Below the pieces are notes generated by a model, which saw only the letters and a list, made by a program, of their open reading frames with translations, was not told the origin of the DNA and did not search any database. This document shows positions 40,659 to 54,840 of a stretch of 64,000 nt of DNA, piece after piece. Position 1 is the first letter of the stretch. Each line of letters opens with the position of its first letter. The stretch spans positions 7,543-71,542 of the forward strand of contig JAZSJJ010000009.1 of NCBI GenBank assembly GCA_045534225.1, given 5' to 3'. The translations under genes were made by a program, and so were the position numbers. The stretch is from Clostridia bacterium (GTDB lineage: Bacteria > Bacillota > Clostridia > TANB77 > CAG-465).

Positions 40659-42167
40659 TTATTTCTTTGTTTCCTTTTTTGCTGGTGCTTTTTTAGTTGT
40701 TGCCGCAGCTTTTTTAGTAGTCGTAGTTTTCTTAGCTGGGGCTTTTTTAGCAACTGGCTTCTTTACTTCTTTTTTAGGTTCTACTTTAGCTTTAGATTCC
40801 ACTTTTTTAGCAGCCGACTTTTTAGTTGTTGTGGAAGTTTTTTTAGTAGTTGTAGTTTTCTTAGCTGGGGCTTTTTTTGTTTCTTTCTTCGCTTCAACTT
40901 TTTCTACTGTCTTTTCTTCCTTTTTAGGCTCTGCTTTTACTTCTTTTTTTACTGGTTTATTAGCTTTATCATAAACTTGTTTTAATTGAGTATCTGTTAC
41001 ATTTTCTTGAGATATGTACATTCTAAATAGATTATTACCTAAAATTCTTCTTACAGTATCTTTAACCTCTTCTTTATTTAGTTTATCATCTTTTAGTTTA
41101 AGAACTACATTATATACAAATGCATTCTTTTTGTTTTTATACATTTCTATTTCTCTGCCAAGCCAAACTTTTTCTACTGAAGGGATAGTCTCAAAATATT
41201 CGTTTATATCTTTTTCTATCTCTGTCATCTCTTCAGAAGGTGCATAAGAACCTTGTAACACAGTTACATCTTTTAACAATTCGTTATGTTCTTTTATTGC
41301 ATTATAGTAGTATATATCACTTGCTGGTAAATCTAATGCTACATCTCCTATTATTTTTAATCCAGTTATAGCACCATGAGCCGCATCCATCATTGTAACA
41401 TAATCGCTAAAATCAAAAACAGATACATAAGTTTTTTCTAAATCTGCTTCTAAATCATTAACTATTCTATCTGCATCTACAAATAAATAATATTTTCCTT
41501 TTACTCCGTCTTCTGTTATAAATACAACTCTATCTTTATTTACGATGTAGTTTCCAATACTATCAGTTTCACCTGTTGGGAATACTGGAGTATAGAATTT
41601 TGCATGATTAACAAATTCATCTAAGAATTTATTTAATAATTCTTCTCTTTTTTCTTCAGATTCTTCTTTTTGTGCATCTAGATATACTTCTAATAATTTC
41701 TTACTAGTAACTTGTGTATTAACTTCTGCTAAACTCATAGCTCTGCATTTAAAGTCAGCATCAACATCTAAATGTAATGGATAGCTTGCATCTGCATAAT
41801 ATTTTTCCCTATATAATTTAGAAATTTGTGGCGCTGTCAATGTTAAAGATTCCGAACTTGGATTAATTAATATATATCCAACGTTATTTACATTAACATT
41901 TTCATAAATATCATCAAAAGACATTTCTGTAATATCATATTTTTCTTTAACTTCAGGATCAATATCTACATCATGTGTATAAACACATAATACAGTAGTT
42001 CCAGTTTCAGATTGTAATAATCTTAATGCATTGCCTTTATTATATTTTTTTGTTGCAACATAGAATTTAGTATCAAATACCATTGTTCTTAATAATACGT
42101 TTTCGTTGTCCAAATTTGGACTTGCTGAATATACAGCACATAGTTCCTTAAAATCTTTTGTTTTCAT
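40659..42167 (-). CDS. SseB-family protein with Lys/Ala/Thr-rich histone-H1-like tail
   Basis: Two SseB-like segments (YILINPSSESLTL; F.PV), SseB_C-like PSVEKVWLG, and about 100-aa KKAPAKKTTTTKK tail. Confidence 0.65.
   Translation of the reverse strand: MKTKDFKELCAVYSASPNLDNENVLLRTMVFDTKFYVATKKYNKGNALRLLQSETGTTVLCVYTHDVDIDPEVKEKYDITEMSFDDIYENVNVNNVGYILINPSSESLTLTAPQISKLYREKYYADASYPLHLDVDADFKCRAMSLAEVNTQVTSKKLLEVYLDAQKEESEEKREELLNKFLDEFVNHAKFYTPVFPTGETDSIGNYIVNKDRVVFITEDGVKGKYYLFVDADRIVNDLEADLEKTYVSVFDFSDYVTMMDAAHGAITGLKIIGDVALDLPASDIYYYNAIKEHNELLKDVTVLQGSYAPSEEMTEIEKDINEYFETIPSVEKVWLGREIEMYKNKKNAFVYNVVLKLKDDKLNKEEVKDTVRRILGNNLFRMYISQENVTDTQLKQVYDKANKPVKKEVKAEPKKEEKTVEKVEAKKETKKAPAKKTTTTKKTSTTTKKSAAKKVESKAKVEPKKEVKKPVAKKAPAKKTTTTKKAAATTKKAPAKKETKK
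40712..40880 (-). repeat. Imperfect ~40-bp direct repeat encoding KKAPAKKTTTTKK
   Basis: TTTTAGTAGT(C/T)GTAGTTTTCTTAGCTGGGGCTTTTTT occurs twice (about 40713-40749 and 40841-40877). Confidence 0.8.
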
Positions 42168-42267
42168 ATTTCCGCTCCTTATAATTACTTTCATTCTATA
42201 ACATAATAAAAATTTTTTCAACACTATTTTGCAAGTATTTTTAGATATTTTTATTTTCTTTTTCCAC

Positions 42268-42337
42268 TTGATTTATGTAAACAAGTATGGTATAATATAC
42301 GCAGGTCAATTTTCAAGCCACAAAAATTTTTGGAGGT
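42268..42337 (+). promoter_or_regulatory. Sigma-A promoter plus conserved leader/RBS motif (copy 1)
   Basis: TTGATT-17-TG-ext TATAAT (42268-42296), then CCACAAAAATTTTTGGAGGT (42318-42337). Confidence 0.75.
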
Positions 42338-42343
42338 ATAAGC

Positions 42344-43168
42344 ATGAGTAATTTTGAAAAAATTTTACCGGAAGCATGTTATCCTCTCGCTAACATGACT
42401 TTCAAAGACGTTGAAAAAGCATTTAAAGAGAACATGACCGTTGTAGGTTACGTAGAAGCAATTAGCCAAGCAAACCAAACCCTTTCTATCCGGTTAGGCG
42501 ATGAAGTTGTCGCCTATTTGCCTTTTGACGAGGCAACAATGTATCCTTTGACATATTCCCAAAACAATCCGGAATTTCCCTTTCCTCTCCAGGTAGGATG
42601 TCTTAAGGAAAAAAATATCTGTGCGAAAATTAAAAACATTAAAGGTCACAGAATTACATTGTCTAGAAAGGATAACATGCTTGAAGTCCTAGAGCTCATT
42701 AGGGATGCAACCACGCTCCCGTTTAATGTCACAGCCACCAGAACTAAAATTGTATTTGGTGATGTAGGTCAAGGAGTTCAAGCAAGAATCAGCGTTCCTG
42801 ATCTTTGCAAAGCACGAATTCGTTCAACTGCTGAAATTTGCAAGAAAGGAGATTCTTTCTTTGTAAAGGTGATAAACTTGGACGATCTCGGTCGCTTTAA
42901 CGTATCGTACAAAGATACATTCCCGGAATACAATCCTGAGTCATACACTCCCGGCGAAATGATAACCGGCGTAATCAACGAGCCCGTTGATTCTAATTTT
43001 TCAGGTTTCTTCGTGAATGTGTCCCCGCAAGTAGCAGGTATTTTGGATTACCAGACCTGGCATCCTATTCTGCACTATGGTGATACCGTTGAATGTGTTA
43101 TTTCTAGCGCATCTAAAAAAGGACTTCATTTGAAACTTTCAAAGGTAGTCTCAAAACAACCAAGATAA
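42344..43168 (+). CDS. Divergent three-S1-domain RNA-binding protein
   Basis: LSRK, VFGDVGQGVQARI, NVSYKD, PGEMITGVI, GFFVNVSPQVAGI align by eye with the clostridial 3xS1 protein family. Confidence 0.7.
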   Translation: MSNFEKILPEACYPLANMTFKDVEKAFKENMTVVGYVEAISQANQTLSIRLGDEVVAYLPFDEATMYPLTYSQNNPEFPFPLQVGCLKEKNICAKIKNIKGHRITLSRKDNMLEVLELIRDATTLPFNVTATRTKIVFGDVGQGVQARISVPDLCKARIRSTAEICKKGDSFFVKVINLDDLGRFNVSYKDTFPEYNPESYTPGEMITGVINEPVDSNFSGFFVNVSPQVAGILDYQTWHPILHYGDTVECVISSASKKGLHLKLSKVVSKQPR

Positions 43169-43169
43169 T

Positions 43170-43197
43170 GAAAAGCCCCGACAAACGGGGCTTTTTC
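43170..43197 (+). terminator. Intrinsic terminator of the S1 gene (bidirectional)
   Basis: GAAAAGCCCCG-ACAAA-CGGGGCTTTTTC. Confidence 0.85.
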
Positions 43198-43229
43198 ATT
43201 TTTTCTTTTCATTTATATAGTTTATATTT

Positions 43230-44456
43230 TTACCATCTATTTTCTCTAAACAAATACATGTCCTTTATATGATACTTTTTAGAAACATCCTTTAACATTT
43301 TTGCGCCTATCATAGATTGAACTATTCCATTACAGCCAACACTTAAATTTAAATATACATTAGGTTTATCTTCTATTTCATCTATTATTGGTAAATTGTC
43401 TTTTGTCTCAATATACATTCCATAAAAGCACTTGTCTATCTTAGGAGCTTCTACCAATGGTATCATTCTATTTAATGCATAATATAGTTTTTTGTACTTA
43501 CCTTTTTCTAGATAGTTAAAATATTTTTTATCCTTCATTCTATCCGTTTCTTTTGTAATCTCTCCACTTAAAATAATCCTTTTATCTTCTGTAAAAGTAA
43601 CAATGCTACTTCCACTATTTATGTTTTTTGCAATTACAGCTGTAGCGTTTACATCTAATGTTTTAACTGGTTCTGTGACTATAGTAAATATCTTGTATAT
43701 ATCCAAATCTTTATTTTCTATGTAATTTAAAGTGTGTATACCTGTAGTTAATATTACACATTTAGAATATATCTTAAACCTATTACTTGTTACACTCTCT
43801 ACTCTATCCTCTGTTGGATTTATTTTTTCGACAAATGTATTTTCATATATTTCTACATTTTCTTTTTTAGATAAATACATATATATTAAACATGTTAAGA
43901 CATATGGATTTAATACTACACCATATTTAGGTATTAATATACCACATCTTAAATTAAGAATAGGATCTTCTTCTAAGTATTCTATCTTGTTATTCTTAGC
44001 GCCTAACTTTTCAAATTGTTTATACATAAAATATTTGTTAGTAACTTTGTTTGTATAATACATCAAATCCATTTGCTTTAGTCCAAGTTCAGCTATATAT
44101 TTTTTGCAATCTTCATCTTCAGATATTTCGCTAATTATATTCAAAATATCCTCTACTGCGATAGAACATAATTTATTATATTTCTCTATTTTCTTTTCAT
44201 CCGTCTCTTTTGCTTTCAAATCCATACATTTAAGCAGTGTACCATCTGTTTTAAGCGTTGTCCCATATCCTAATATATTTTTATCCACAACAATAACATT
44301 TGCACCAGATTTAGCTTGCATATATGCCGTGAGAGCTCCGCCGATTCCTCCGCCTATTACTAGCGTGTCGCATTTTCTATCTTTTGCTAGATATTCATAC
44401 TTTTTAATAATTCCTGTTTTGCTGTTCCAAAGAAAGTTCCCTTCTTTTATATTCAT
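43230..44456 (-). CDS. FAD-dependent oxidoreductase, DAO/YhfW-like
   Basis: LVIGGGIGG dinucleotide-binding motif, TKDNLPII, GCNGI; RBS GAGGTGG before ATG 44456. Confidence 0.8.
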   Translation of the reverse strand: MNIKEGNFLWNSKTGIIKKYEYLAKDRKCDTLVIGGGIGGALTAYMQAKSGANVIVVDKNILGYGTTLKTDGTLLKCMDLKAKETDEKKIEKYNKLCSIAVEDILNIISEISEDEDCKKYIAELGLKQMDLMYYTNKVTNKYFMYKQFEKLGAKNNKIEYLEEDPILNLRCGILIPKYGVVLNPYVLTCLIYMYLSKKENVEIYENTFVEKINPTEDRVESVTSNRFKIYSKCVILTTGIHTLNYIENKDLDIYKIFTIVTEPVKTLDVNATAVIAKNINSGSSIVTFTEDKRIILSGEITKETDRMKDKKYFNYLEKGKYKKLYYALNRMIPLVEAPKIDKCFYGMYIETKDNLPIIDEIEDKPNVYLNLSVGCNGIVQSMIGAKMLKDVSKKYHIKDMYLFRENRW

Positions 44457-44519
44457 TTGTTCCACCTCATGTATATTATTTGAGACAAAATAAAATATAT
44501 ACATTTTTTAGAAATTTAG

Positions 44520-44548
44520 TTCTAAAAATACAAGCTTGTACATAAATA
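44520..44548 (+). promoter_or_regulatory. Possible sigma-E promoter of SH3-CAP gene
   Basis: TTCTAAA-14 nt-CATAAATA followed by GGAGGT RBS. Confidence 0.45.
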
Positions 44549-44567
44549 TATATTGGAGGTAATTTAC

Positions 44568-45539
44568 ATGGAAAAACTAAAGAAAATATTTTTAGCTACA
44601 ATCATACTATTTTTTCTTAGCGTAACGTTATTAATCACAAAAGTTTCTGCAATATCTGTTACAAACTATGCGCCTAAATATGGCACTGTAACAACAACTG
44701 TAAATTTTAGAGCTACTGCTTCTACTAAAAAAGGAAAACTTGGAACATTAAAGAAAAACACATCTGTTAAAATACTGGCTACAACTGGCGAATTTTACGT
44801 TGTGCAAACTAGTAACAATGAGATTGGGGTGGTTAGCAAAAGCTACGTTAAAACAAGTTCTAGCGCGCCTAAAGGGGCAAAAACTTATACAATGGTTACT
44901 AAAAAAGTGGGAACTACAACTGGAAACATTGTTTTACGCGGTGGTCCTGGAACAAACTTTTCTAAACGAATGACTTTAGATAAAGGAACAAAAGTGACCG
45001 TTGTTGGTTACATATCTAATTGGTATGTAGTTATAACTGATGGTGGAAATGTAGGGTGCATTAGAAAAGATCTTCTAAAAACATCTAATGTAACAGCCAG
45101 CAACACAAACACTTCATCTAACACTAATACTACCACTACTACAACCAAAGTTTCTATGAGCGAAAACGAACAAATTATTTTTAACTTAATAAACAACGCT
45201 AGAACTAAAAAAGGATTAAGCAAATTAACCGCTGGTGTAAGTTTAACCAAACTTGCAGGATTAAAATCTGATGATATGGTAAATAAAGAATATTTCTCTC
45301 ATACTTCCCCAACATATGGTGATCCGTTTAAGATGCTTACTAATAACAAAGTAGAATACAAAGTAGCAGGTGAAAACATTGCAGGTAATCCTAGTTTAGA
45401 AGATGCCGTAAACTCGTGGTTAAACTCTGAAACTCATAAGGCTAATATTCTTTCTAATTCCTACAACTATGTTGGAGTTGGTGTAACTAAAAGTGATATA
45501 TATGGTTATGTTATATCTGTAATGTTTATAGGGCAATAA
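44568..45539 (+). CDS. Secreted SH3b x2 + CAP (SCP/YkwD-like) domain protein
   Basis: Signal peptide; VNFR..ST and LRGGPGTN SH3b repeats; Thr-rich linker; CAP motifs YFSHTSPTYG, AGENIA, SETHKANIL, VGVGV. Confidence 0.88.
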   Translation: MEKLKKIFLATIILFFLSVTLLITKVSAISVTNYAPKYGTVTTTVNFRATASTKKGKLGTLKKNTSVKILATTGEFYVVQTSNNEIGVVSKSYVKTSSSAPKGAKTYTMVTKKVGTTTGNIVLRGGPGTNFSKRMTLDKGTKVTVVGYISNWYVVITDGGNVGCIRKDLLKTSNVTASNTNTSSNTNTTTTTTKVSMSENEQIIFNLINNARTKKGLSKLTAGVSLTKLAGLKSDDMVNKEYFSHTSPTYGDPFKMLTNNKVEYKVAGENIAGNPSLEDAVNSWLNSETHKANILSNSYNYVGVGVTKSDIYGYVISVMFIGQ

Positions 45540-45574
45540 AGAAGTTCACTGGTTTTGTTCCAGTGAACTTTCTT
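45540..45574. terminator. Bidirectional terminator
   Basis: AGAAGTTCACTGG-TTTTGTT-CCAGTGAACTT-TCT hairpin. Confidence 0.75.
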
Positions 45575-45709
45575 TTATATATGAAACTTAGCTAAAATTA
45601 TTCTTCCGAATTTCTTTGTGTTTAGAAACAATTTAACATTCTCTTTTATTCCCGCTTTTATTGCTCCTCTTACAGCTTTAGCTACCTTTCTTTTATCCTT
45701 CTTTTTCAT
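45575..45709 (-). CDS. Possible 44-aa basic small protein
   Basis: Manual read: MKKKDKRKVAKAVRGAIKAGIKENVKLFLNTKKFGRIILAKFHI; exactly fills gap between the acyltransferase stop and the terminator, but no clear RBS. Confidence 0.35.
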   Translation of the reverse strand: MKKKDKRKVAKAVRGAIKAGIKENVKLFLNTKKFGRIILAKFHI

Positions 45710-45716
45710 TTTTATA

Positions 45717-47003
45717 TTAGTCGGATACATCTACCAAATCATTCCCTTCTATCCTTACAGATATATTTCTTTCTTTTAATAATTCCTTAAATTTATTTTC
45801 TACTAGATTTTCTTTAAGTATAGTTGAAAATGTAACAACTATATCGTTTTCATAAGATACTATACCACATTTAATCTTTTCTGCCCAATCCGGTGAAAGT
45901 ATTACAAAATATCCTTTTATATATTCTTTGTAATCCCCCTCTACATTTACAACGCCTATGTTAGAAAAAGAAGTAGTAAACTTTCTTTTAACTTGCATAG
46001 AACCTATTCTAAACGCTAGTTTCTTAAGAACTAATGGTACTATTCTTACAAATATATTATTTGTACTTCCCGCATCTTTTGTTATTGTAGAAAGTATTTT
46101 ATCTAGTATTAATTTCTTTTCAAATTCCTTTTTTACAAGAATTAATATATCATCAAAAGTATATACCTTTTCTTCTTTTAGTGCAACGCTTACTTGCATA
46201 TATGAAAAGAAATTAGATATTGTTTCTGTTTTAATATATTTTTTAAGATTAATAGGAACAGAAATATTTATCGGTCTTTTACCATTATATATTCTGTAAT
46301 TTGTTTCATATATTGAATAAGCTATTAAAGATACTAGATATTCTGAAAGGCTACATCCAACACTTCTTGCATACTCTTTTAATTCTTTTAGATTAATAAT
46401 TTCATGAGTTATGCCATATTCTCCTTTTTCTAATTCTTCGCCTTGAAGCATATATGCTTTTTTTATTTTTTTCGTTTTTACTCTTTTCTTTACATAGCTT
46501 TTCTTATATGCATCTTCTGTGTCTTCAGACATCTTTCTAAATTCTTTTTTGTGTTCAGAAATTTTATCTGGATATTTCATTTCAAGATATCTATATACTA
46601 CTTCATTTAAGAATAATATGGCGCCATTACCATCTGTTAAAGCATGAAACACTTCTAGATTAATTTTGTTATGAAAATATGTAATCTTAAACAGGTATTC
46701 ATTATTAGCTTTATCATTTACCTTCTTAAATGGATAGTCTACTTCTTCTGACACAACTGGCATTAATTCATTTTCTTCAAAATAATACCAAAACAAGCCA
46801 GATTTTAGCTTTACCTTGAAAGCTCTATACTTCTTAATAGCAAGTTCAACAGATTGTTGCAACAAATCTTTATCTATATTTTCATTGAGTAAAACGGATA
46901 ATCTATATATTGAACTATACTTTTTATTTGAAGCTAAAGTAAACACCTTTGCTTGATCGTCTAATTTTCTCCAATATGCCTTTTTTATTATTTTTTTCTT
47001 CAT
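45717..47003 (-). CDS. Condensation/alcohol-acetyltransferase-fold acyltransferase
   Basis: WRKLDD, GLFWYYFE, FHALTDGNG (HxxxDG), TISNFF, FSNIG. Confidence 0.75.
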   Translation of the reverse strand: MKKKIIKKAYWRKLDDQAKVFTLASNKKYSSIYRLSVLLNENIDKDLLQQSVELAIKKYRAFKVKLKSGLFWYYFEENELMPVVSEEVDYPFKKVNDKANNEYLFKITYFHNKINLEVFHALTDGNGAILFLNEVVYRYLEMKYPDKISEHKKEFRKMSEDTEDAYKKSYVKKRVKTKKIKKAYMLQGEELEKGEYGITHEIINLKELKEYARSVGCSLSEYLVSLIAYSIYETNYRIYNGKRPINISVPINLKKYIKTETISNFFSYMQVSVALKEEKVYTFDDILILVKKEFEKKLILDKILSTITKDAGSTNNIFVRIVPLVLKKLAFRIGSMQVKRKFTTSFSNIGVVNVEGDYKEYIKGYFVILSPDWAEKIKCGIVSYENDIVVTFSTILKENLVENKFKELLKERNISVRIEGNDLVDVSD

Positions 47004-47050
47004 TATTATATTACTTTTATTCCCTTTAATGCGAGTATTATATAATAAAA

Positions 47051-47083
47051 AAACATAATTAGCAACTGGTGCTAATTATGTTT
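47051..47083 (-). terminator. Terminator after ruvC
   Basis: AAACATAATTAGCA-ACTGG-TGCTAATTATGTTT. Confidence 0.7.
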
Positions 47084-47095
47084 ATCATTTATTTT

Positions 47096-47602
47096 TTATT
47101 TCTTCCTTATTTCTTTTTCTATATAACTGTTATACTTATTACTATTTGCGTGACATATTGCTATTGCTAAAGCGTCTGTAGTATCGTCAATTTTAGGCAT
47201 TTTATCTAGTTTTAATATATCTTTTACCATATATTCTACCTGATCTTTTTTTGCTCTTCCGTACCCAACTAACGCTTGCTTTACTTGAAGTGGTGTATAT
47301 TCACTTATCTTTATACCATGCTTTTCTAACGTACAAAGGACAACACCTCTTGCTTCTGCAACTTGTATACCTGTTGTTATGTTTTGGTTGAAAAATAAAT
47401 CTTCTATTGATGCTTCATCTATTTTATTTCTAGATAAAACTTCTTCTAAATCTTCTTCTATTTTCTTAAGTCTTAAAGATAATCTTTCTTTAGCAGGAGT
47501 AGTAATACATCCATATTCTACTGTTCTAAACTTATTATTTCTATATTCTATTATTCCATAACCTAGTCTTCCAAACCCAGGATCTATTCCTAATATGTAC
47601 AT
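47096..47602 (-). CDS. ruvC: Holliday junction resolvase
   Basis: ILGIDPG, IEDLFF, ARGV, GYGRAKKDQV, DDTTDALAIA. Confidence 0.95.
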   Translation of the reverse strand: MYILGIDPGFGRLGYGIIEYRNNKFRTVEYGCITTPAKERLSLRLKKIEEDLEEVLSRNKIDEASIEDLFFNQNITTGIQVAEARGVVLCTLEKHGIKISEYTPLQVKQALVGYGRAKKDQVEYMVKDILKLDKMPKIDDTTDALAIAICHANSNKYNSYIEKEIRKK

Positions 47603-47622
47603 TTACTCTCCTCCTTTTTTTC

Positions 47623-49449
47623 TTAAGTTAACATATCAAAAGCACGAATAAGCTCTGCATTTGTCATGGCAGAAACTGTATTACCAATAGCCTTTTTAGT
47701 CTTTTCATTATATTTATATTTAACCGTTCCAACTGTATTTTTACCTATCTCTTGGAATGCATCTTTAACTAGATTATATGCTAGTTTTTGGCTTGCACGT
47801 GTTACACCCATTTGTCTTAAATTTGCTTTTAAGAAATGTACTAATAAATGTGGATAAACATACCCATCATATCTTGGTGAATTTATTTCACCAAGTCTCA
47901 TTCCTAAAGCTGTATATAGCTTCTTAAATGTAGTATCCATAAGTTTCATGCTTACGTTGCCATCATGTATTACCTTGTATGATAAACTAAGTGCAAAAAG
48001 CATATCTACTGTTGCATAAGATTCTGCGTCTTTTTCATATTTAAGAACTGCTTTTTCTTCATCCCAAAATTCTTCTACAATTTTGTATTTTACATTTTCC
48101 GAAACATTATATATGTATTCTGAGTTTTCTCCAAACTTATCTGCTAAGTCTACATATATTCTAAGTGCATTATACCACAAAGCATTTAACTTGATATATT
48201 TCTTTCCATCTACAACTAATAGGTTGTCTTTCTCGTCCGCATACATATTTTCTAATCTTCTATTTAATAATTCATATATATTATCTCTAATAAACGAATA
48301 AAAGTCTTTTATTTCCTCTTTAGGCGACTCTGTAATAGCAACATATCTATTTAATGCTTCTATATATAATAGTATGGCTTCACATCTATCTATATCTTCT
48401 AATTTGTATGTTGTATCTTTTAGCTTTATCATCATACTTTCAAGAATCTTGTGTGCTTCTTTATATCTTCCAAGCAACAGATAATTTCCTTCTATAGAAA
48501 CTATCATATTCTTTACATATTCTTTAGAATCATAAATTGGTGGCATAGATTCTAAGAGTACAAATTGTCTTTTTTCTTTATCTATATATTGCAGCGAATA
48601 TGCTGTTTTAGCTAAAGATTTAAGTTCATAATACATTTCATCAATTGAATGATAACGCATATCATCTCTATCTTTAATGTCCATTTCCATATTCATAGAT
48701 TCACACATTTGTACGTTTATATCTTCCGTAGACACAAATACTAAAAATGTTGATGTATTCATATTCTTAACGTGTGCTTCAAATACACCAGGTATAAACA
48801 AATCTTCTACATATGTTTTAATATTTCCAAAACCATCTTCGTAGTCTGAGTTTACTCCAGATAAATATGTTTCTTTTTTATCATAACGCATATTAGGAGA
48901 TTTAATATATAGATTTAATCTATCCGTAATACTTAAAGCTACTTTTGCTGCTGTCGGTGCATACTGACTAGTAAACTTCATATCACTCTTACGTTTAAGT
49001 GTAACTAATGATCTTTTAGTCACACATGGCATTGCAAAGAATTTTACCATCTTTCCAGTATTATTTGTTACTGCATAATCTATGCATAAAAGCTTGCTGT
49101 TTGGATCTAGTTTATATTTTTTAACTATTCTACAACCATGTATATTGTATGTATATGTTGGTACTGGTTCATTTGTAAATTCTTCTAAGTACTCTACTCC
49201 GCCATAATTTTCTTCACTAGTCTTAACATCCATTATGTCATATCTTTCATGGTCTATTATTACGTATTCTATCATTTTAGATAAGTATATATCGTTACCT
49301 TTTGGTGTTTGGTTTATATATAAACCATGATAGGGTGCAAAATTTGCACCCGTAACTGAAGTATTTATATATATTCCTTGATTGTTTGATTCTACGTATT
49401 CTACCCTTGTGTCATCAGTCAAGGTTTTATTTGTTCTTTTATATATCAT
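47623..49449 (-). CDS. Glycogen-debranching-enzyme-like (amylo-alpha-1,6-glucosidase fold) protein with degenerate active site
   Basis: GDE N-domain (YHGL, YLSKM, PVPTYTY, EDLFIPG) and NALWYNAL, YPHLL, TNAEL remnants of the catalytic domain. Confidence 0.75.
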   Translation of the reverse strand: MIYKRTNKTLTDDTRVEYVESNNQGIYINTSVTGANFAPYHGLYINQTPKGNDIYLSKMIEYVIIDHERYDIMDVKTSEENYGGVEYLEEFTNEPVPTYTYNIHGCRIVKKYKLDPNSKLLCIDYAVTNNTGKMVKFFAMPCVTKRSLVTLKRKSDMKFTSQYAPTAAKVALSITDRLNLYIKSPNMRYDKKETYLSGVNSDYEDGFGNIKTYVEDLFIPGVFEAHVKNMNTSTFLVFVSTEDINVQMCESMNMEMDIKDRDDMRYHSIDEMYYELKSLAKTAYSLQYIDKEKRQFVLLESMPPIYDSKEYVKNMIVSIEGNYLLLGRYKEAHKILESMMIKLKDTTYKLEDIDRCEAILLYIEALNRYVAITESPKEEIKDFYSFIRDNIYELLNRRLENMYADEKDNLLVVDGKKYIKLNALWYNALRIYVDLADKFGENSEYIYNVSENVKYKIVEEFWDEEKAVLKYEKDAESYATVDMLFALSLSYKVIHDGNVSMKLMDTTFKKLYTALGMRLGEINSPRYDGYVYPHLLVHFLKANLRQMGVTRASQKLAYNLVKDAFQEIGKNTVGTVKYKYNEKTKKAIGNTVSAMTNAELIRAFDMLT

Positions 49450-49466
49450 GTAATTTTCCTCTCATT

Positions 49467-50867
49467 TTAGGAATTATGTTCTTCTTCCGTTCTTTTTCTT
49501 CTTTCTAACTCTGCGTTAATTATTTTTTCTTTCGTTTCAGGACTAATTCTGCTAACTACTTTTTTCTTTTTCTTAGAATTCTTTCTTTTTAACAAATTCA
49601 AAGAGCCAATTCCTTTAGTTTTAGCAATTTCTATAATTATTTCAGCCACTCTTAAATTATCATGTAAGATAGAGTTTGGAGCTGTAATAACTAAGTCCTC
49701 TTCAATAACAGATATTGTTCTGTTTTTAATATTTTCTAAATCTATTGTTACTGGAGTTGAAGCTCCTTGGTTAAAGTCTAATATCATATCCTCTGTAATT
49801 TCGCCGTTATTGCTTATTACATAATCTAAAACTTGTTTTCCTAGATATCTTTCAACTTCATTAACATGTTTTGCAAGTGTATAACCAGTAGTTTCACCTG
49901 GTTCATTCATTATGTTTGAAATCATAACCTTTTTAGCTTTACTTTGTATTATTGTTTTACTTACATCATTTACAAGTAAGTTGCAAATAACACTTGAGTA
50001 AAGGCTTCCTGGTCCGATTACTATAACATCTGCTTCTTTTAGTGCTTCTAGCACACCTGGTGCTGGATCTGCTTCTGTATCTTTTAAGAATATTTGTTTA
50101 ATTCTGCTCTTAGACTCTAAAGCTCTTGGTCTAATATTGTCTTCACCAACAACGAGTTCACCATTTTCTAAGCTTGCACAAAGTTTAGCTTTATCTAAAG
50201 ATACAGGTAGTATTTTCCCTTTAACTCTAAATATTTCAGCTATTTTTTGCACAGCTGGTGCAAAACCACCCATAACTTCTGTCATAGCAACTATCATTAA
50301 GTTACCTAAAGAATGGTTATCTATTTTACCATCTTTAAATCTATAACTTAGAAGTTTTTCCATACAAGGTTCAACTTCAGATAATGCTATTATACTTCTA
50401 CGAATATCTCCAGGAGGTAATGTATCTATTTGTTGCATTATTCTTCCTGTAGAACCACCATCATCAAAAGTTGCTACAATTGATGTGATGTTTGATGTAA
50501 ATTCTTTAAGACCACTTAATATGTTAGATAGGCCTTTTCCGCCACCTATTATAACAACTTTAGGTCCTTTTTTTAGCATAGATTCTGTAAATAACAATTT
50601 ACGGATATCTCCATTTTTCTCTTTGTATGCCATATTCTTTAATGTTATTTTAAGAATACTTCTTTGAGCTAGTATAAACGAGTATACTGTTGTAAATAGC
50701 GATATAGTGATTAACGCTATATATGCTATTATTCTTTCTTTACCGTGGCCTTGTTCACCAAAACATTTATATGTTGTATATCCTAATAATACAACAGATA
50801 AAATTTGTAATATAACATAACGTTTTACTTTTATTCCTGGTTTTAACCACTCTAAAAATGCTTTCAT
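49467..50867 (-). CDS. yvcK: YvcK/UPF0052 gluconeogenesis-morphogenesis factor with N-terminal TM segments
   Basis: GGGKGL, DDGGSTG, PPGDIR, HSLGNL, GPGSLYSSV, EPGET. Confidence 0.92.
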   Translation of the reverse strand: MKAFLEWLKPGIKVKRYVILQILSVVLLGYTTYKCFGEQGHGKERIIAYIALITISLFTTVYSFILAQRSILKITLKNMAYKEKNGDIRKLLFTESMLKKGPKVVIIGGGKGLSNILSGLKEFTSNITSIVATFDDGGSTGRIMQQIDTLPPGDIRRSIIALSEVEPCMEKLLSYRFKDGKIDNHSLGNLMIVAMTEVMGGFAPAVQKIAEIFRVKGKILPVSLDKAKLCASLENGELVVGEDNIRPRALESKSRIKQIFLKDTEADPAPGVLEALKEADVIVIGPGSLYSSVICNLLVNDVSKTIIQSKAKKVMISNIMNEPGETTGYTLAKHVNEVERYLGKQVLDYVISNNGEITEDMILDFNQGASTPVTIDLENIKNRTISVIEEDLVITAPNSILHDNLRVAEIIIEIAKTKGIGSLNLLKRKNSKKKKKVVSRISPETKEKIINAELERRKRTEEEHNS

Positions 50868-50875
50868 TTTTTCTC

Positions 50876-51796
50876 TTAAACTTCCTCTCCAAGTATTATT
50901 ATTTCTTCTTCTAGTTTAACTTTGTTTGCCTCAAATACTTTTTCTTTGATGTAATCTATTAAATCTTTTACATCTTTTGCTTTAGCATGATCTACATTTA
51001 CTATAAAGCCAGAATGTTTAGTAGAAACTTCAGCTCCACCAATTCTATGACCTTTTAGTCCTAAATCATCTATAAGCTTTCCAACAAAATATCCTTCTGG
51101 TCTTTTGAAAGTACTTCCTGCATTTGGATACTCTAAAGGTTGTTTAGCTTTTCTAGAATCGTTATTTTCTTTCATCTTAGCTTCAATTTCTTCTTTATTA
51201 CCTTTAGCTAATTTAAATTTAGCTTGAAGGATTATATTGCCTTCTTCTTTATGATTCTTGAAATAACTTTTTCTATATCCAAATTCTAATTCATCTTTAG
51301 CTAGAGTTTTAACTTCGTTATTTTTATCTAAATATGTAACTTCTTCTATTACATTAGCCATTTCTCCGCCATATGCTCCAGCGTTCATAAATACTCCGCC
51401 ACCAAGATAACCTGGAATTCCTGCTGCAAATTCTAAGCCAGCAAGCTCATTATCTTTGGCAATTATTGCAAGACGAGGCATACTAAGTCCTGACTCTGCT
51501 GTAATATATTCTCCGTTTACTTCTACATTAGAGAATTTACTTCCTAACTTTATTACTAATCCTCTAATTCCACCATCTAGTACAAGTAGTTTGCTACCGT
51601 TACCTATAACTGTAACTGGCACATCGTATTTTTTAGCAAATTCCATTGCATCAATTACATCTTGTACATTATCTGGTAAAACTAGTATGTCTGCTGGTCC
51701 ACCAACTTTTAATGTTGTGTGTTTCTCCATTGGCTCGTTAAATCTAACCTTTGATTCATCTATATATTCTTTAATTTTATTATATTCTACTTTCAT
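50876..51796 (-). CDS. murB: UDP-N-acetylenolpyruvoylglucosamine reductase
   Basis: HTTLKVGG, GNGSKLL, GIPGYLGG..MNAGAYG, PNAGSTFKRP, KHSGFIVN. Confidence 0.97.
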   Translation of the reverse strand: MKVEYNKIKEYIDESKVRFNEPMEKHTTLKVGGPADILVLPDNVQDVIDAMEFAKKYDVPVTVIGNGSKLLVLDGGIRGLVIKLGSKFSNVEVNGEYITAESGLSMPRLAIIAKDNELAGLEFAAGIPGYLGGGVFMNAGAYGGEMANVIEEVTYLDKNNEVKTLAKDELEFGYRKSYFKNHKEEGNIILQAKFKLAKGNKEEIEAKMKENNDSRKAKQPLEYPNAGSTFKRPEGYFVGKLIDDLGLKGHRIGGAEVSTKHSGFIVNVDHAKAKDVKDLIDYIKEKVFEANKVKLEEEIIILGEEV

Positions 51797-51915
51797 AAAT
51801 CCACCCTTTTATATTTTATTAGGACTTTAAGAATTATATCACAATATGAATATTATTTCAACTATAGACATCTTTTCTACAGTCCAATTAACTACAATAA
51901 ATATTAATAAAATAA

Positions 51916-51987
51916 TTGTAATTTCTTGCTAAAAATGTTATAATTAAATTAGTGGTTATAGCACGGATCCCAAATAAATTTGGAGGT
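51916..51987 (+). promoter_or_regulatory. Sigma-A promoter plus conserved leader/RBS motif (copy 2)
   Basis: TTGTAA-17-TG-ext TATAAT (51916-51944), then CCCAAATAAATTTGGAGGT (51969-51987). Confidence 0.75.
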
Positions 51988-51993
51988 AAAAAT

Positions 51994-52458
51994 ATGGCAC
52001 TTGTAGTAAAGAATGTCGATGAACGCACAATTCGTAGAATGGCAAGTGAGTACCTCTCTGGTTCTTACGTTTCATTAAAAACCATTGCTACGAAGTACCG
52101 GACAACCGCAACAACTATTTCCAACATTCTCTGGCGAGGAATCGCTGAAGATATTATCGACTTTAGAGTAGCGAAATGCATCTATAACAAAGTTGTAGAT
52201 AAGCCCTCTATCGGTTGGTATCAACGGAAAATGCGGTGGGATGAAGCTTTTGACAGACGAGACGAGTTTATCAAAGAAAAAGAACGTGAAGCAAAAATTC
52301 AAGAAGAACTTCTTAATCTCGAGGCCCTTAAAGAGTATTACGAGCATGCAATCGCAAGCTACGATAGCTACTTTACAAACGAAGACGATGGCCCTTCTAA
52401 AGAAGAACTTCAAGATAAACTTGATGAAGTCATAAGAAAAATCGAAGCCCTGTCCTAA
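51994..52458 (+). CDS. Hypothetical protein, HTH-like N-terminus + coiled coil (paralog A)
   Basis: RBS GGAGGT, ATG 51994; SLKTIATKYRTTATTISNILWRG; clear paralog of the next ORF. Confidence 0.8.
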   Translation: MALVVKNVDERTIRRMASEYLSGSYVSLKTIATKYRTTATTISNILWRGIAEDIIDFRVAKCIYNKVVDKPSIGWYQRKMRWDEAFDRRDEFIKEKEREAKIQEELLNLEALKEYYEHAIASYDSYFTNEDDGPSKEELQDKLDEVIRKIEALS

Positions 52459-52471
52459 CAAAAGGATTTAA

Positions 52472-52507
52472 GCCTGATTGCAAATATGCAGTCAGGCCTT
52501 TCCTTTT
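52472..52507 (+). terminator. Terminator of paralog A
   Basis: GCCTGATTGCA-AATA-TGCAGTCAGGC followed by CTTTCCTTTTT. Confidence 0.8.
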
Positions 52508-52530
52508 TACCCTATTTATTAATATAAAAT

Positions 52531-52601
52531 TTGTGTTTTTATGTTAAGTGTGATATAATATATGCGTTATTAAAAATGGTACCACAAATAAATTTGGAGG
52601 T
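52531..52601 (+). promoter_or_regulatory. Sigma-A promoter plus conserved leader/RBS motif (copy 3)
   Basis: TTGTGT-17-TG-ext TATAAT (52531-52559), then CCACAAATAAATTTGGAGGT (52582-52601). Confidence 0.75.
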
Positions 52602-52612
52602 TAAAGCGGAAA

Positions 52613-53065
52613 ATGAAATCGAAAGATGTTGACCGAAGGTCAATCTGGTTACTTGCAAAAGAGTACCTGTCTAGCCCTTATGTAACATTTGAATGTGTCG
52701 GTGCGAATCACGACATTTCAGGAAGAATGGTATCTAACATTCTTTGGCGCGGCATTGCCGAAAACATTCTCTCAACGACAATTGCAGAAGCAGTATACTC
52801 TAAGATCATTCACAGTTCATATAGAGGTCGTTCAGCTCGGGCTAATCGTTGGGACGATGCTTTTGATAGGCGCCAAGAAACCAGAGAAAAATTAAACAAG
52901 AAGCTTGCTATGTTCAAAGAATGGGAAAACTTACTTGCTTATAGAGTAGAACATTACGATGAATATGTAGCATCTTGTGATTCCCCATCATCTCTTGAAG
53001 AAATTAACGAACGGCTTAACAAATTGCGTGAAATAATTCCGCACTATGTTTCAGCTTTACGCTAA
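52613..53065 (+). CDS. Hypothetical protein, HTH-like N-terminus + coiled coil (paralog B)
   Basis: Shares VD.R.I...A.EYLS..YV, SNILWRGIAE.I, RWD.AFDRR and Y..Y...D.PS..E...L motifs with paralog A. Confidence 0.8.
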   Translation: MKSKDVDRRSIWLLAKEYLSSPYVTFECVGANHDISGRMVSNILWRGIAENILSTTIAEAVYSKIIHSSYRGRSARANRWDDAFDRRQETREKLNKKLAMFKEWENLLAYRVEHYDEYVASCDSPSSLEEINERLNKLREIIPHYVSALR

Positions 53066-53072
53066 TTTCCTT

Positions 53073-53102
53073 ACGGTATAGCCAACAGGTTATACCGTTT
53101 TT
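53073..53102 (+). terminator. Terminator of paralog B
   Basis: ACGGTATAGCC-AACA-GGTTATACCGT-TTTT. Confidence 0.8.
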
Positions 53103-53179
53103 CTTTATTTTTACCATTTTATTTTATTTTTCACTTTACATTTTATTTTCTTTTTGTTATAATAAATATCGTAGCTGAT

Positions 53180-53255
53180 GTGCGATTAGCTCAGTTGGTA
53201 GAGCAGTAGACTCTTAATCTATTGGTCCGGGGTTCGAGTCCCCGATCGCGCACCA
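53180..53255 (+). tRNA. tRNA-Lys (anticodon CTT)
   Basis: Acceptor GTGCGAT/ATCGCGC, D-arm AGCTCAGTTGGTAGAGC, anticodon arm GTAGA-CTCTTAA-TCTAT, T-arm GGGTTCGAGTCCC, encoded CCA; 76 nt. Confidence 0.96.
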
Positions 53256-53258
53256 AAT

Positions 53259-53288
53259 AAAACCGTTAAGATTTTTCTTAACGGTTTT
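53259..53288. terminator. Bidirectional terminator after tRNA-Lys
   Basis: AAAACCGTTAAGA / TCTTAACGGTTTT perfect stem. Confidence 0.8.
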
Positions 53289-53856
53289 ATTTTATGCTCT
53301 TTTCTCTATTAATTAAATTCTCTACTCTAGGCCTATTAAATCTTTGTATTAATATAAACTGCGCATCAAACAACATTGCTAATATACATGTTACTAAGAA
53401 TATTGCAAACTCTCCCCATATAAACGCAAATAACAATGTAGATAAAGATATAAGTTCATTTATCCAATGATCAAGTTCGGATTTAAGCATTGTTTGTAGC
53501 ACTTGTTCTTTTGTATTCTTTTTAAGATTAAAAGCATCCGGATCATATGTTAATGCTTTAGACTTCCACTTCTTTACTTTAAGAATTTTGTATAATTTTT
53601 GTTCAAACTTTCTTTCCTTAAATAAAAATTGTTTAGTGCTTAATTTTTCCTTAAATTTCGTTGTTATAACCCCAAACTCTAGCCTTAATCCTAATTGATA
53701 TACTATTGTAAATGCAGTAACGCCTAAATATAGCACTACATCATTTTTGAAATACCCAGTGTAATATAACAAAAAGCACGCTATCATTATAAATACACAT
53801 ATTTCTATTATTATATCTATTAAAAGAGCTGCTCCACTCTTCTTTTGCTTTTTCAT
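53287..53856 (-). CDS. CrtO-like (glycosyl-4,4'-diaponeurosporenoate acyltransferase family) membrane protein
   Basis: FEQKLYKILKVKKWK, SELDHW, ILIQRFNRPR motifs. Confidence 0.72.
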   Translation of the reverse strand: MKKQKKSGAALLIDIIIEICVFIMIACFLLYYTGYFKNDVVLYLGVTAFTIVYQLGLRLEFGVITTKFKEKLSTKQFLFKERKFEQKLYKILKVKKWKSKALTYDPDAFNLKKNTKEQVLQTMLKSELDHWINELISLSTLLFAFIWGEFAIFLVTCILAMLFDAQFILIQRFNRPRVENLINREKSIK

Positions 53857-53967
53857 ATTATTCCCTCTTTAATATGTTTTAACATATTCACATTATACCA
53901 TAAAACGATAAAAAGCAACACAAGTTTTGTGCCGCTTTTTCTGTTTACATGTTTTTATTATTATTTA

Positions 53968-54840
53968 TCACTCATCTGGATTAATATGTACAACTGCATC
54001 ATATACATCATCGTTTCTACATACTAACTCTCTTATCATACCTGCTATCTTATGGCTTTCTCTTACTGTCATATCTGGATTTACAGATACCTTTATTATC
54101 ATCATATGAAGAGTTCCTGTTGGTTTAGACTTAATGCTATCTATATGATTTACACCTGGAAGTTCTTCTATGTTTTTTCTCATTTCATCTACTTTATCTG
54201 CATCAATACACTTATCTATTAATACATCGTAAGCTTCTTTTATTATCATAAGACCTGTTACAACAATAACACCAGATATTGCTATGCCAACTAAGCCGTC
54301 TATATATGTATATCCTAGTTTACTTGCTATTATTCCAACAAGTACACCTAAAGATAAAAGAATATCATTTCTATGGTCTTTTGCATTTGCTTCTAATAGC
54401 AAAGAATTATTTGTTTTAGCTAGTTTTTTACAATACATTAAAAGTAATCCTTTTACTAGTATTGTTACCACTGGAACAATTAACAATATAACAGAGAATA
54501 TTAAACTTTGTTTATTTATTATTGAATCAAAACCACTTCTTATTGTTTTGAAACTTACAAATACCATAAATATTCCAATTAACAGAGATGCTACAAACTC
54601 TGCTTTACCATGACCAAATTCATGATCATCATCTGCAGGTTTAGAAGATATCTTTCCTCCCACAAATGTTACTATTGAAGAAAAGACATCTCCAAAACTA
54701 TTTATTGCATCTGCTATTAATCCTTGAGATTTAAATACAAATCCCACTATAAATTTTATTACAAGCAAAAAGAGATTAGCTATTACACCAATAGCTCCTA
54801 CTCTCTTTACTTCATTACTTTTATTATTTGTCATAAACAC
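53968..54840 (-). CDS. Cation diffusion facilitator, FieF-like
   Basis: IADAINSFGD, KPADDDHEFGHGKAE, DHRND, VHINP. Confidence 0.9.
   Translation of the reverse strand: MFMTNNKSNEVKRVGAIGVIANLFLLVIKFIVGFVFKSQGLIADAINSFGDVFSSIVTFVGGKISSKPADDDHEFGHGKAEFVASLLIGIFMVFVSFKTIRSGFDSIINKQSLIFSVILLIVPVVTILVKGLLLMYCKKLAKTNNSLLLEANAKDHRNDILLSLGVLVGIIASKLGYTYIDGLVGIAISGVIVVTGLMIIKEAYDVLIDKCIDADKVDEMRKNIEELPGVNHIDSIKSKPTGTLHMMIIKVSVNPDMTVRESHKIAGMIRELVCRNDDVYDAVVHINPDE

Follow-up and report, generated by a model that had tools for sequence, protein, structure and literature searches.

Introduction

Why do three genes from two unrelated families begin with the same promoter and leader? The question is raised by the window, a stretch of 64,000 nucleotides (nt) that corresponds to C1:7543-71542 of a 1.24-Mb, 15-contig genome with a guanine plus cytosine (GC) content of 31%. 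The genome is affiliated with uncultured "Clostridia bacterium" lineages of gut and rumen metagenomes and has a listed CheckM-type completeness of 100%. The three genes encode an S1-like protein (start at 42344) and two paralogous proteins, here called A and B (starts at 51994 and 52613). An earlier note on this DNA had described them as members of a dispersed family of self-contained genes with a common hairpin-forming leader, whose products all look like nucleic acid binders, and had suggested either a regulon under a common translational control element or a class of mobile single-gene cassettes. The dispersed class of monocistronic genes with one promoter–leader–ribosome-binding-site geometry was borne out and, at about 30 strict members here, is much larger than had been noticed, while the hairpin, the mobility and the regulon of nucleic acid binders were not. 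The explanation that we consider probable is that the three genes belong to a family-wide expression module carried by fast-evolving, lineage-specific genes, which in this genus is coupled to codon recoding in place.

The shared promoter and leader

The features of the three genes are listed below, with lengths of products in amino acids (aa) and the GC content of third codon positions (GC3).

42268..42296, + strand: promoter of the S1-like gene, TTGATT-17-TGgTATAAT, kept in orthologs
42297..42343, + strand: leader of the S1-like gene, about 40-45 nt, G-poor, ending in CCAC, an A5T5 tract and GGAGGT
42318-42337, + strand: motif CCACAAAAATTTTTGGAGGT in the leader of the S1-like gene
42344..43168, + strand: S1-like gene, 274 aa, three predicted S1/OB-fold domains, GC3 0.36, ATG at 42344
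43170..43196, both strands: intrinsic terminator hairpin with a T-run on either strand, between the convergent S1-like and DAO-type oxidoreductase (DAO) genes
51916..51944, + strand: promoter of gene A, TTGTAA-17-TGtTATAAT
51945..51993, + strand: leader of gene A, ATTAGTGGTTATAGCAC (kept across orthologs), then CCCAAATAAATTTGGAGGT (51969-51987)
51994..52458, + strand: gene A, 154 aa, GC3 0.37, ATG at 51994
52472..52497, + strand: terminator of gene A
52531..52559, + strand: promoter of gene B, TTGTGT-17-TGaTATAAT, read from the sequence
52560..52612, + strand: leader of gene B, ATATGCGTTATTAAAAATGGTA, then CCACAAATAAATTTGGAGGT (52582-52601)
52613..53065, + strand: gene B, 150 aa, GC3 0.32, ATG at 52613
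53073..53098, + strand: terminator of gene B

All three genes are preceded by a promoter of the form TTGnnn-17-TGnTATAAT, and all three leaders carry, 21-24 nt 3′ of the -10 element, the motif C(A)AAWAAWTTTGGAGGT or CC(A)CAAAWAAWTTTGGAGGT. Each gene is followed by its own GC-rich terminator. The genes are also GC-richer than their surroundings, as the GC3 values listed above compare to 0.13-0.24 for their neighbors. In these respects the earlier description was accurate. Its statement that the genes lie on the plus strand against mostly minus-strand neighbors is correct for the three, but the CAP/SH3 gene at 44553-45539 is on the plus strand as well.

The motif is rare at this level of similarity. 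With at most one mismatch, CAAAWAAWTTTGGAGGT has 3 matches in the window compared to 0.01 expected, and CAAA-N3-6-TTTGGAGG occurs only four times in the whole genome. A and B are paralogs with 35% identity whose leaders have a 21-nt repeat in common. The S1-like gene is unrelated to either, and the shared leader is therefore not a mere by-product of the A/B duplication. One rival explanation is that there is no class and that the three genes share by chance the generic AT-rich ribosome-binding context of the organism. TTTGGAGG alone is such a common context (35 genome copies, about 21 of them, by eye, directly before a start codon), and since the leaders of A and B are alike by descent, a single coincidence would suffice. 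The count of motif matches in the window argues against this explanation, as do the genome-wide counts given below.

The module class in this genome

For the genome-wide comparison, open reading frames (ORFs) of at least 80 aa were binned by GC3 into a high (>0.35), a mid (0.25-0.35) and a low (<0.25) class, with approximate counts of 95, 109 and 975, respectively. Leader comparisons were restricted to genes with an upstream intergenic region of their own (own-leader genes; 71 high, 71 mid and 483 low). The composite module was defined as TGnTAnAAT, 18-36 nt, C, 0-2 non-G bases, 9-22 nt of A/T and (G)GAG. This module was present in 22 of the 71 high-GC3 and 8 of the 71 mid-GC3 own-leader genes but in none of the 483 low-GC3 ones, and the S1-like gene, A and B are all among its members. 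In this genome, the module is strictly tied to genes with GC-richer codon usage.

Individual parts of the module were also compared between the classes. First, the extended -10 element (TGnTAnAAT) is found in 55% of high-GC3, 51% of mid-GC3 and 19% of low-GC3 genes, and in the high and mid classes together the TTG of the -35 element is conserved at 95/86/85%. Second, the word AATAATT occurs in the last 45 nt before the start codon of 16/71 high, 13/71 mid and 14/483 low genes (Fisher p = 3.7e-8, high versus low). The A/T-only run before the Shine–Dalgarno (SD) sequence has a median length of 11 nt in the high, 5 nt in the mid and 4 nt in the low class, and the base bounding it is C in 77%, 56% and 39% of cases, respectively; TAGNCC or TAGCAC-type words are enriched just 5′ of the tract with an odds ratio of 7.9. 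Third, the geometry is tight, with an interquartile range of 50-60 nt for the distance from the -10 element to the ATG, a median of 28 nt from the -10 element to AATAATT and a median of 5 nt from AATAATT to the SD sequence.

The products of the module genes are very mixed, which does not agree with a functional regulon of nucleic acid binders. Among 20 members scanned in addition to the three genes, 11 have no Pfam domain (14 of 23 when the three are included), and the remaining ones comprise beta-CASP nuclease, HAD hydrolase, hexapeptide transferase, TelA, PP2C, PIN and WG-repeat proteins.

Some module promoters have further features. An inverted repeat of 9-13 bp brackets the -10 element upstream of C5:16792, C2:69990, C2:27232 and C12:87378 (e.g., AACGCAGTAAT-TATGATATA-ATTACTGCGTT), and such repeats could be gene-specific operators. 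An unrelated gene for a 125-aa protein has almost the same promoter and initial transcribed region (TGTGATATAATATTTGCGTTATTAAA, upstream of C12:114841) as gene B (TGTGATATAATATATGCGTTATTAAA, 52531-52575), and starts resembling TATAAT-N4-6-GCGTT recur in other module promoters.

Distribution across the bacterial family

A simpler pattern, TATAAT-N16-36-AATAATT-N1-10-GGAG, was used for searching genomes, with the reversed pattern as a control. It occurs 27 times in this genome compared to 0 for the reversed control, 9-34 times in 12 congeners and 2-37 times in 24 genomes from five other genera of the family, and four sister families have 0-7 occurrences per genome. The reversed controls gave 0-3 per genome compared to up to 37 in the forward direction. 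The leader seen at the two loci of the window thus recurs in about 30 module genes here, and its pattern is found across the bacterial family. With these controls, and with the composite module in 30 GC3-elevated genes compared to none of the ordinary ones, it is highly improbable that the three genes share a generic context by chance.

In G025, a genome of another genus, only 2 of 20 module genes have a homolog in the present genome, compared to 62% of the other genes. This deficit indicates that, across the family, lineage-specific genes are the ones marked by the module. The GC3 of the module genes in G025 is hardly raised (0.19 vs 0.17), which suggests that the strong codon shift is a later, genus-specific feature.

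In orthologs of the S1-like gene and of A, the leader retains the order of C, A-run, T-run and GGAGG across deep divergence, while the letters of the tract drift (A5T5, A3TA2T4, A5TA2T6 and A6T7). In S1-like orthologs, the A/T tract and GGAGG persist down to 23-39% protein identity.

Codon usage of the class

The codon usage of the class differs from that of the bulk of the genes in a defined manner. Third positions of high-GC3 genes have frequencies of 0.25 for A (A3), 0.34 for T (T3), 0.24 for C (C3) and 0.17 for G (G3), compared to 0.47-0.48, 0.35, 0.08 and 0.10 in bulk genes. The class avoids ATA (0.18 vs 0.66), TTA (0.13 vs 0.51), CCA, ACA, CAA, AAA and AGA and favors ATC, CTT, ACC, AAG, CAG and AAC.

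Two causes of such a deviation were rejected. First, a codon bias of highly expressed genes does not apply, as EF-Tu, EF-G, S12, RpoB, DnaK, enolase and GAPDH all have a low GC3 of 0.13-0.19, which places translation factors, RpoB, DnaK and glycolytic enzymes in the low class. Second, a replication-strand effect does not apply either. The orientation of class genes is random with respect to the local strand bias (51% anti-oriented vs 13%), and anti-oriented ordinary genes reach only A3 0.40, T3 0.40 and GC3 0.20.

Comparison with congeners indicated how the deviation may have arisen. The proportion of ORFs with GC3 above 0.35 is 1.1% in G002, 4.7% in G003 and 8% in this genome. High-class genes average a GC3 of 0.41 here and their G002 orthologs 0.26 (n = 5), compared to 0.180 and 0.177 for low-class pairs (n = 228). 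For the S1-like gene at the same position, GC3 is 0.19 in G002 and 0.26 in G008, compared to 0.33-0.48 in the subclade of this genome. The weaker GC3 of the G002 and G008 orthologs suggests that the composition was shifted in place, and the bulk-like value of the G002 ortholog in the same slot argues that it was not imported with the gene. The shift persists in orthologs whose synonymous sites must be saturated, and what maintains it is probably either class-specific selection or biased gene conversion. On the coding strand the shift is asymmetric (A declines, T is unchanged and the gain of C exceeds that of G), which is easier to reconcile with selection acting on codons or mRNA than with strand-symmetric conversion.

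These observations bear on another explanation, in which the class is a codon-defined posttranscriptional regulon. The leader would be the site of a trans-acting factor, and the A3-poor mRNAs would depend on tRNAs with G or C at position 34 (G34 or C34) rather than on the heavily used ones with U at this position, so that they would be translated preferentially in a particular state of the cell, such as amino acid starvation, stationary phase or damage to tRNAs or their modifications. In its favor, leader module and codon class are strictly coupled (0/483 vs 30/142), and the codon shift runs away from ATA, TTA, CAA, AAA, AGA, CCA and ACA toward AAG, CAG, ACC, ATC and AAC. A high GC3 persists in orthologs at 37-39% identity, where synonymous sites should be saturated, which suggests a maintained state. 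Furthermore, C34 tRNAs (Lys-CTT, Gln-CTG, Glu-CTC, Leu-CAA, Arg-CCT and Thr-CGT, in an incomplete set of 32 tRNA genes) are retained even though their codons are rare in bulk genes, and one of them is the constant neighbor of A and B:

53135-53163, + strand: promoter of tRNA-Lys(CTT), TTTACA-17-TGtTATAAT, near-consensus
53180..53255, + strand: tRNA-Lys(CTT), not part of the module

Several findings do not fit this explanation. In the Leu-CTN, Pro, Val and Ser-TCN boxes, only tRNAs with U at position 34 (U34) are among the 32 found in the incomplete set, and a change from A to T or C in these boxes changes no tRNA. In addition, module genes share no function, and G025 has the module almost without the codon shift, which shows that leader and codon bias can be uncoupled. 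We regard the codon-defined regulon as unlikely. Rather improbable, too, is a combined form of it, in which the family marks lineage-specific genes with a promoter–leader kit and the in-place recoding creates a codon-defined translational regulon that bypasses U34 tRNAs and is favored under starvation, stress or tRNA damage.

Lysine codons are AAG in 54% of cases in the GC3-rich class compared to 24% in bulk genes. The 32 tRNA genes of the assembly, and the absence of a 16S 3′ end from it, indicate that the assembly lacks the rRNA operons with their tRNAs (Ile, Ala, Tyr and others) despite the listed 100% marker completeness.

Inheritance, divergence and mobility

The positions of the three genes were compared among relatives. 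The S1-like gene is convergent with a gene for a DAO-type oxidoreductase in every contig or genome that has it, and upstream of it lies either a DUF2344 gene or an intervening ORF of 491-521 aa. The exact slot of the S1-like gene is occupied in G002 and G008 by a gene whose product, of about 270 aa, is 23-24% identical. Wherever gene A occurs in a relative, it is transcribed divergently from murB and is followed by tRNA-Lys(CTT), the constant downstream neighbor of A alone or of A plus B. Only one subclade of the genus has A, and the presence of B varies among relatives. In the more distant congeners G003 (L071) and G011 (L073), A forms an operon with a downstream partner of 193-213 aa that has weak similarity to B, and there is no internal promoter. 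The two self-contained units seen here are thus a local arrangement only, and the promoter of B was either acquired later in this lineage or lost in the G003 and G011 species.

Relatives without A (G002, G008 and G012; L061-L063) differ in the arrangement of the whole region upstream of murB, where a clean empty site was thus not found. In this subclade, a four-gene block that corresponds to contig C2 39150-41580 of the present genome lies upstream of murB, which indicates a rearrangement breakpoint right at the A/tRNA-Lys locus.

The genes diverge much faster than their neighbors. In comparison with G003, G004 and G011, identity is 37-39% for the S1-like protein and 31-36% for A, compared to 66-69% for MurB and 54-57% for the DAO protein; overall, it is 23-39% for the genes studied here and 59-69% for MurB. 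Judged from gene order and alignment, the three genes appear to be chromosomal, restricted to the genus, vertically inherited at fixed positions and unusually fast-diverging.

The proposal of mobile single-gene cassettes without an integrase, or of old imports from a GC-richer donor that resemble the morons of prophages and came with their own promoter, leader and terminator, can be weighed against this picture. All three genes have their own promoter and terminator together with a deviant composition, as such elements do, and the class is oriented independently of the local bias (51% vs 13%). Most module genes are lineage-specific, many of them are without a Pfam domain, and B is variably present. 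On the other hand, gene order is fixed at both loci across the genus. No flanking repeats were found at either locus beyond short AT-rich chance repeats, no recombinase or integrase lies near the three genes, whose neighbors are housekeeping genes, and tblastn found no phage homologs of them. The bulk-like GC3 of the S1-like ortholog in the same slot of G002 and the operon of A and its partner in G003 and G011 are further points against it. The mobile-cassette proposal was therefore rejected, and in its wider form, which includes moron-like imports, we consider it very unlikely.

Function of the leader

The earlier note had read the leader as a possible hairpin (CCAAA/TTTGG) over the start of the SD sequence; with CC:GG pairs added, it would sequester the SD sequence and serve as a common translational switch. 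Every leader can indeed draw a stem of the form (((.((((....))))..))) that touches GGAGG, and 77% of class leaders have a C ahead of the A/U tract. Gene A, as the only one that stands out, has an SD unpaired probability of 0.21 compared to 0.51 in shuffles. However, the stems consist of 3-5 mostly A-U pairs. Local folds of 11 leaders had energies of -3.1 to -4.7 kcal/mol and z-scores of -0.29 to -1.95, and whole-leader folds had z-scores of +0.6 to -1.2. SD accessibility was computed class-wide against shuffles for 448 leaders, and in the 54 with AATAATT or a close variant, the unpaired probability was 0.50 compared to 0.55 in shuffles (p = 0.07). Stems and loops change freely in orthologs. 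Any run of A followed by one of U will pair with itself, which makes substitutions uninformative and covariation not scorable. A scan of 41500-54000 against Rfam (E <= 1) gave a tRNA and sub-threshold terminator matches only and none on the leaders. For these reasons the hairpin was rejected as the control element, and a switch of this kind is decidedly unlikely.

In the model that we prefer, each gene would be a monocistronic unit built on a stereotyped module that the family uses for lineage-specific genes. First, a near-consensus sigma-A-type promoter, TTGaca-17-TGnTATAAT, would direct transcription of a G-poor leader of about 45 nt. Second, this leader contains a C, often inside TAGYCC or CCAC, followed by an A/U-only tract of 9-22 nt in which AAUAAUU is the most enriched word. 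The tract abuts a strong SD sequence (GGAGG or AAGGAG) or lies within a few nt of it, with the start codon about 8 nt farther on, and the transcript would end at the gene's own terminator. Third, at the RNA level, the tract would most likely serve as an unstructured enhancer or standby platform for the 30S subunit, resulting in strong and largely unregulated initiation. The motif that the S1-like gene shares with A and B would then reflect membership in the module class, and A and B would additionally share descent. As a second mark of the class in this genus, third-position A is replaced, mainly by C, a mark that is absent from highly expressed housekeeping genes and weaker or missing in orthologs of an outlying congener.

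A/U-rich, unstructured translation-initiation enhancers or standby tracts 5′ of the SD sequence, dependent on S1, have been described for E. coli (PMC2176067, PMC5934652). The leaders of the class have such an A/U-rich, G-poor tract right 5′ of the SD sequence. The median run is 11 nt, compared to 4 nt in bulk genes, and the motif lies at a median distance of 5 nt from the SD sequence.

Several points weigh against this model. The SD accessibility of the leaders is, if anything, a little below that of shuffles (p = 0.07), which is hard to square with a purely open leader. A/U-rich enhancers are best documented with the S1 protein of E. coli, and this genome yielded neither a canonical multi-domain rpsA nor Hfq; the latter, whose gene is absent, was rejected as an A/U-binding factor. 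The spacing of the tract is equally tight to the -10 element, which leaves room for a role at the DNA level, for example as operator or pause element. Finally, the ORFs of the genome came from a crude longest-ORF caller, and the class counts given above are therefore approximate.

Gene products and neighboring genes

The AlphaFold model of the S1-like protein (pLDDT 91.5) has three five-stranded barrels of the S1/OB fold. Its Foldseek matches include bS1 (9gut_B, E 9e-16) and a multi-S1 protein (3go5, E 2.7e-9). At the sequence level, it does not match PF00575 at the curated Pfam threshold for S1, and NCBIfam rpsA models score 24 bits against it, below cut-offs of several hundred.

That all three products bind nucleic acids, as had been claimed, agrees with the three S1/OB domains of the S1-like protein; for A and B, it is suggested only by faint helix-turn-helix (HTH) signals. 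The model of the A protein (pLDDT 89) is all-helical with a long central helix and a possible HTH in its N-terminal helices. Scans of Pfam and NCBIfam found no family for A or B, and Foldseek found no significant structural neighbor for them, with TetR/DeoR-type proteins at E > 0.8 only. The A/B family comprises 116 clusters at 50% identity, and its distant members have faint matches to Sigma70_r4 and HTH_24 in the region equivalent to the N-terminal helices of A. A DNA-binding role for A and B is plausible from these models and matches.

Some further genes are worth listing. A second triple-S1 protein of 257 aa is encoded at C1:129903-130676 in a co-oriented housekeeping array, with a GC3 of 0.12; blastp aligns it weakly with the S1-like protein over about 170 residues. 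At 40659-42224, upstream of the S1-like gene, an ORF of 521 aa has a weak match to the SseB N-terminal domain as its sole Pfam match, and in some relatives (L005) it is missing between DUF2344 and the S1-like gene. A conserved ORF of 428 aa without a Pfam domain lies at 45717-47003 of the window.

Significance and comparison with known systems

As a rule, lineage-specific genes are AT-richer than the rest of the genome, and their expression signals are weak or idiosyncratic. The class described here shows the reverse pattern, as dozens of lineage-specific genes have near-consensus promoters, one leader design and, in this genus, GC-richer, A3-poor codons. If selection maintains the codon usage, an uncultured gut Clostridia lineage with a 1.2-Mb genome would offer a natural case in which one class of genes has a codon usage of its own that is tied to a shared initiation element. 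The module may also be of practical value, as a strong expression signal that could be used directly in these organisms and as a simple sequence tag for their accessory gene pool.

Four known systems come closest. First, the S1-like protein resembles bS1 and SP_0946 of S. pneumoniae (PDB 3go5) in its three tandem predicted S1/OB folds, and differs from them in falling below Pfam S1 thresholds, in being limited to the genus and in its fast evolution. Second, like the morons of prophages, module genes are monocistronic, have a strong promoter, a terminator and an atypical composition, lie in arbitrary orientation and are mostly of unknown function. Unlike morons, they have no prophage or mobile context, they occupy positions fixed in the genus, and their composition was apparently shifted in place.

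Third, codon-biased translation of gene classes is known from selective tRNA charging in starvation and from the hypoxia response regulon of mycobacteria. As in these systems, the synonymous codon choice of a subset of genes differs from that of both bulk and highly expressed genes. The present class differs in that no condition, tRNA or modification is linked to it and in that, by the tRNAs detected, part of its codon shift falls in single-tRNA boxes.

Fourth, the leaders resemble the A/U-rich enhancers of E. coli and the gene-10 leader of phage T7, which contains AAAUAAUUUUG. Common to both are the short leader and the A/U-only, G-free tract 5′ of a strong SD sequence, of which composition and position are conserved rather than the exact sequence. 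Compared to those enhancers, the module occurs in a genome in which no canonical S1 or Hfq was found, and it forms a unit of fixed geometry that is repeated on dozens of lineage-specific genes and coupled to a distinct codon usage.

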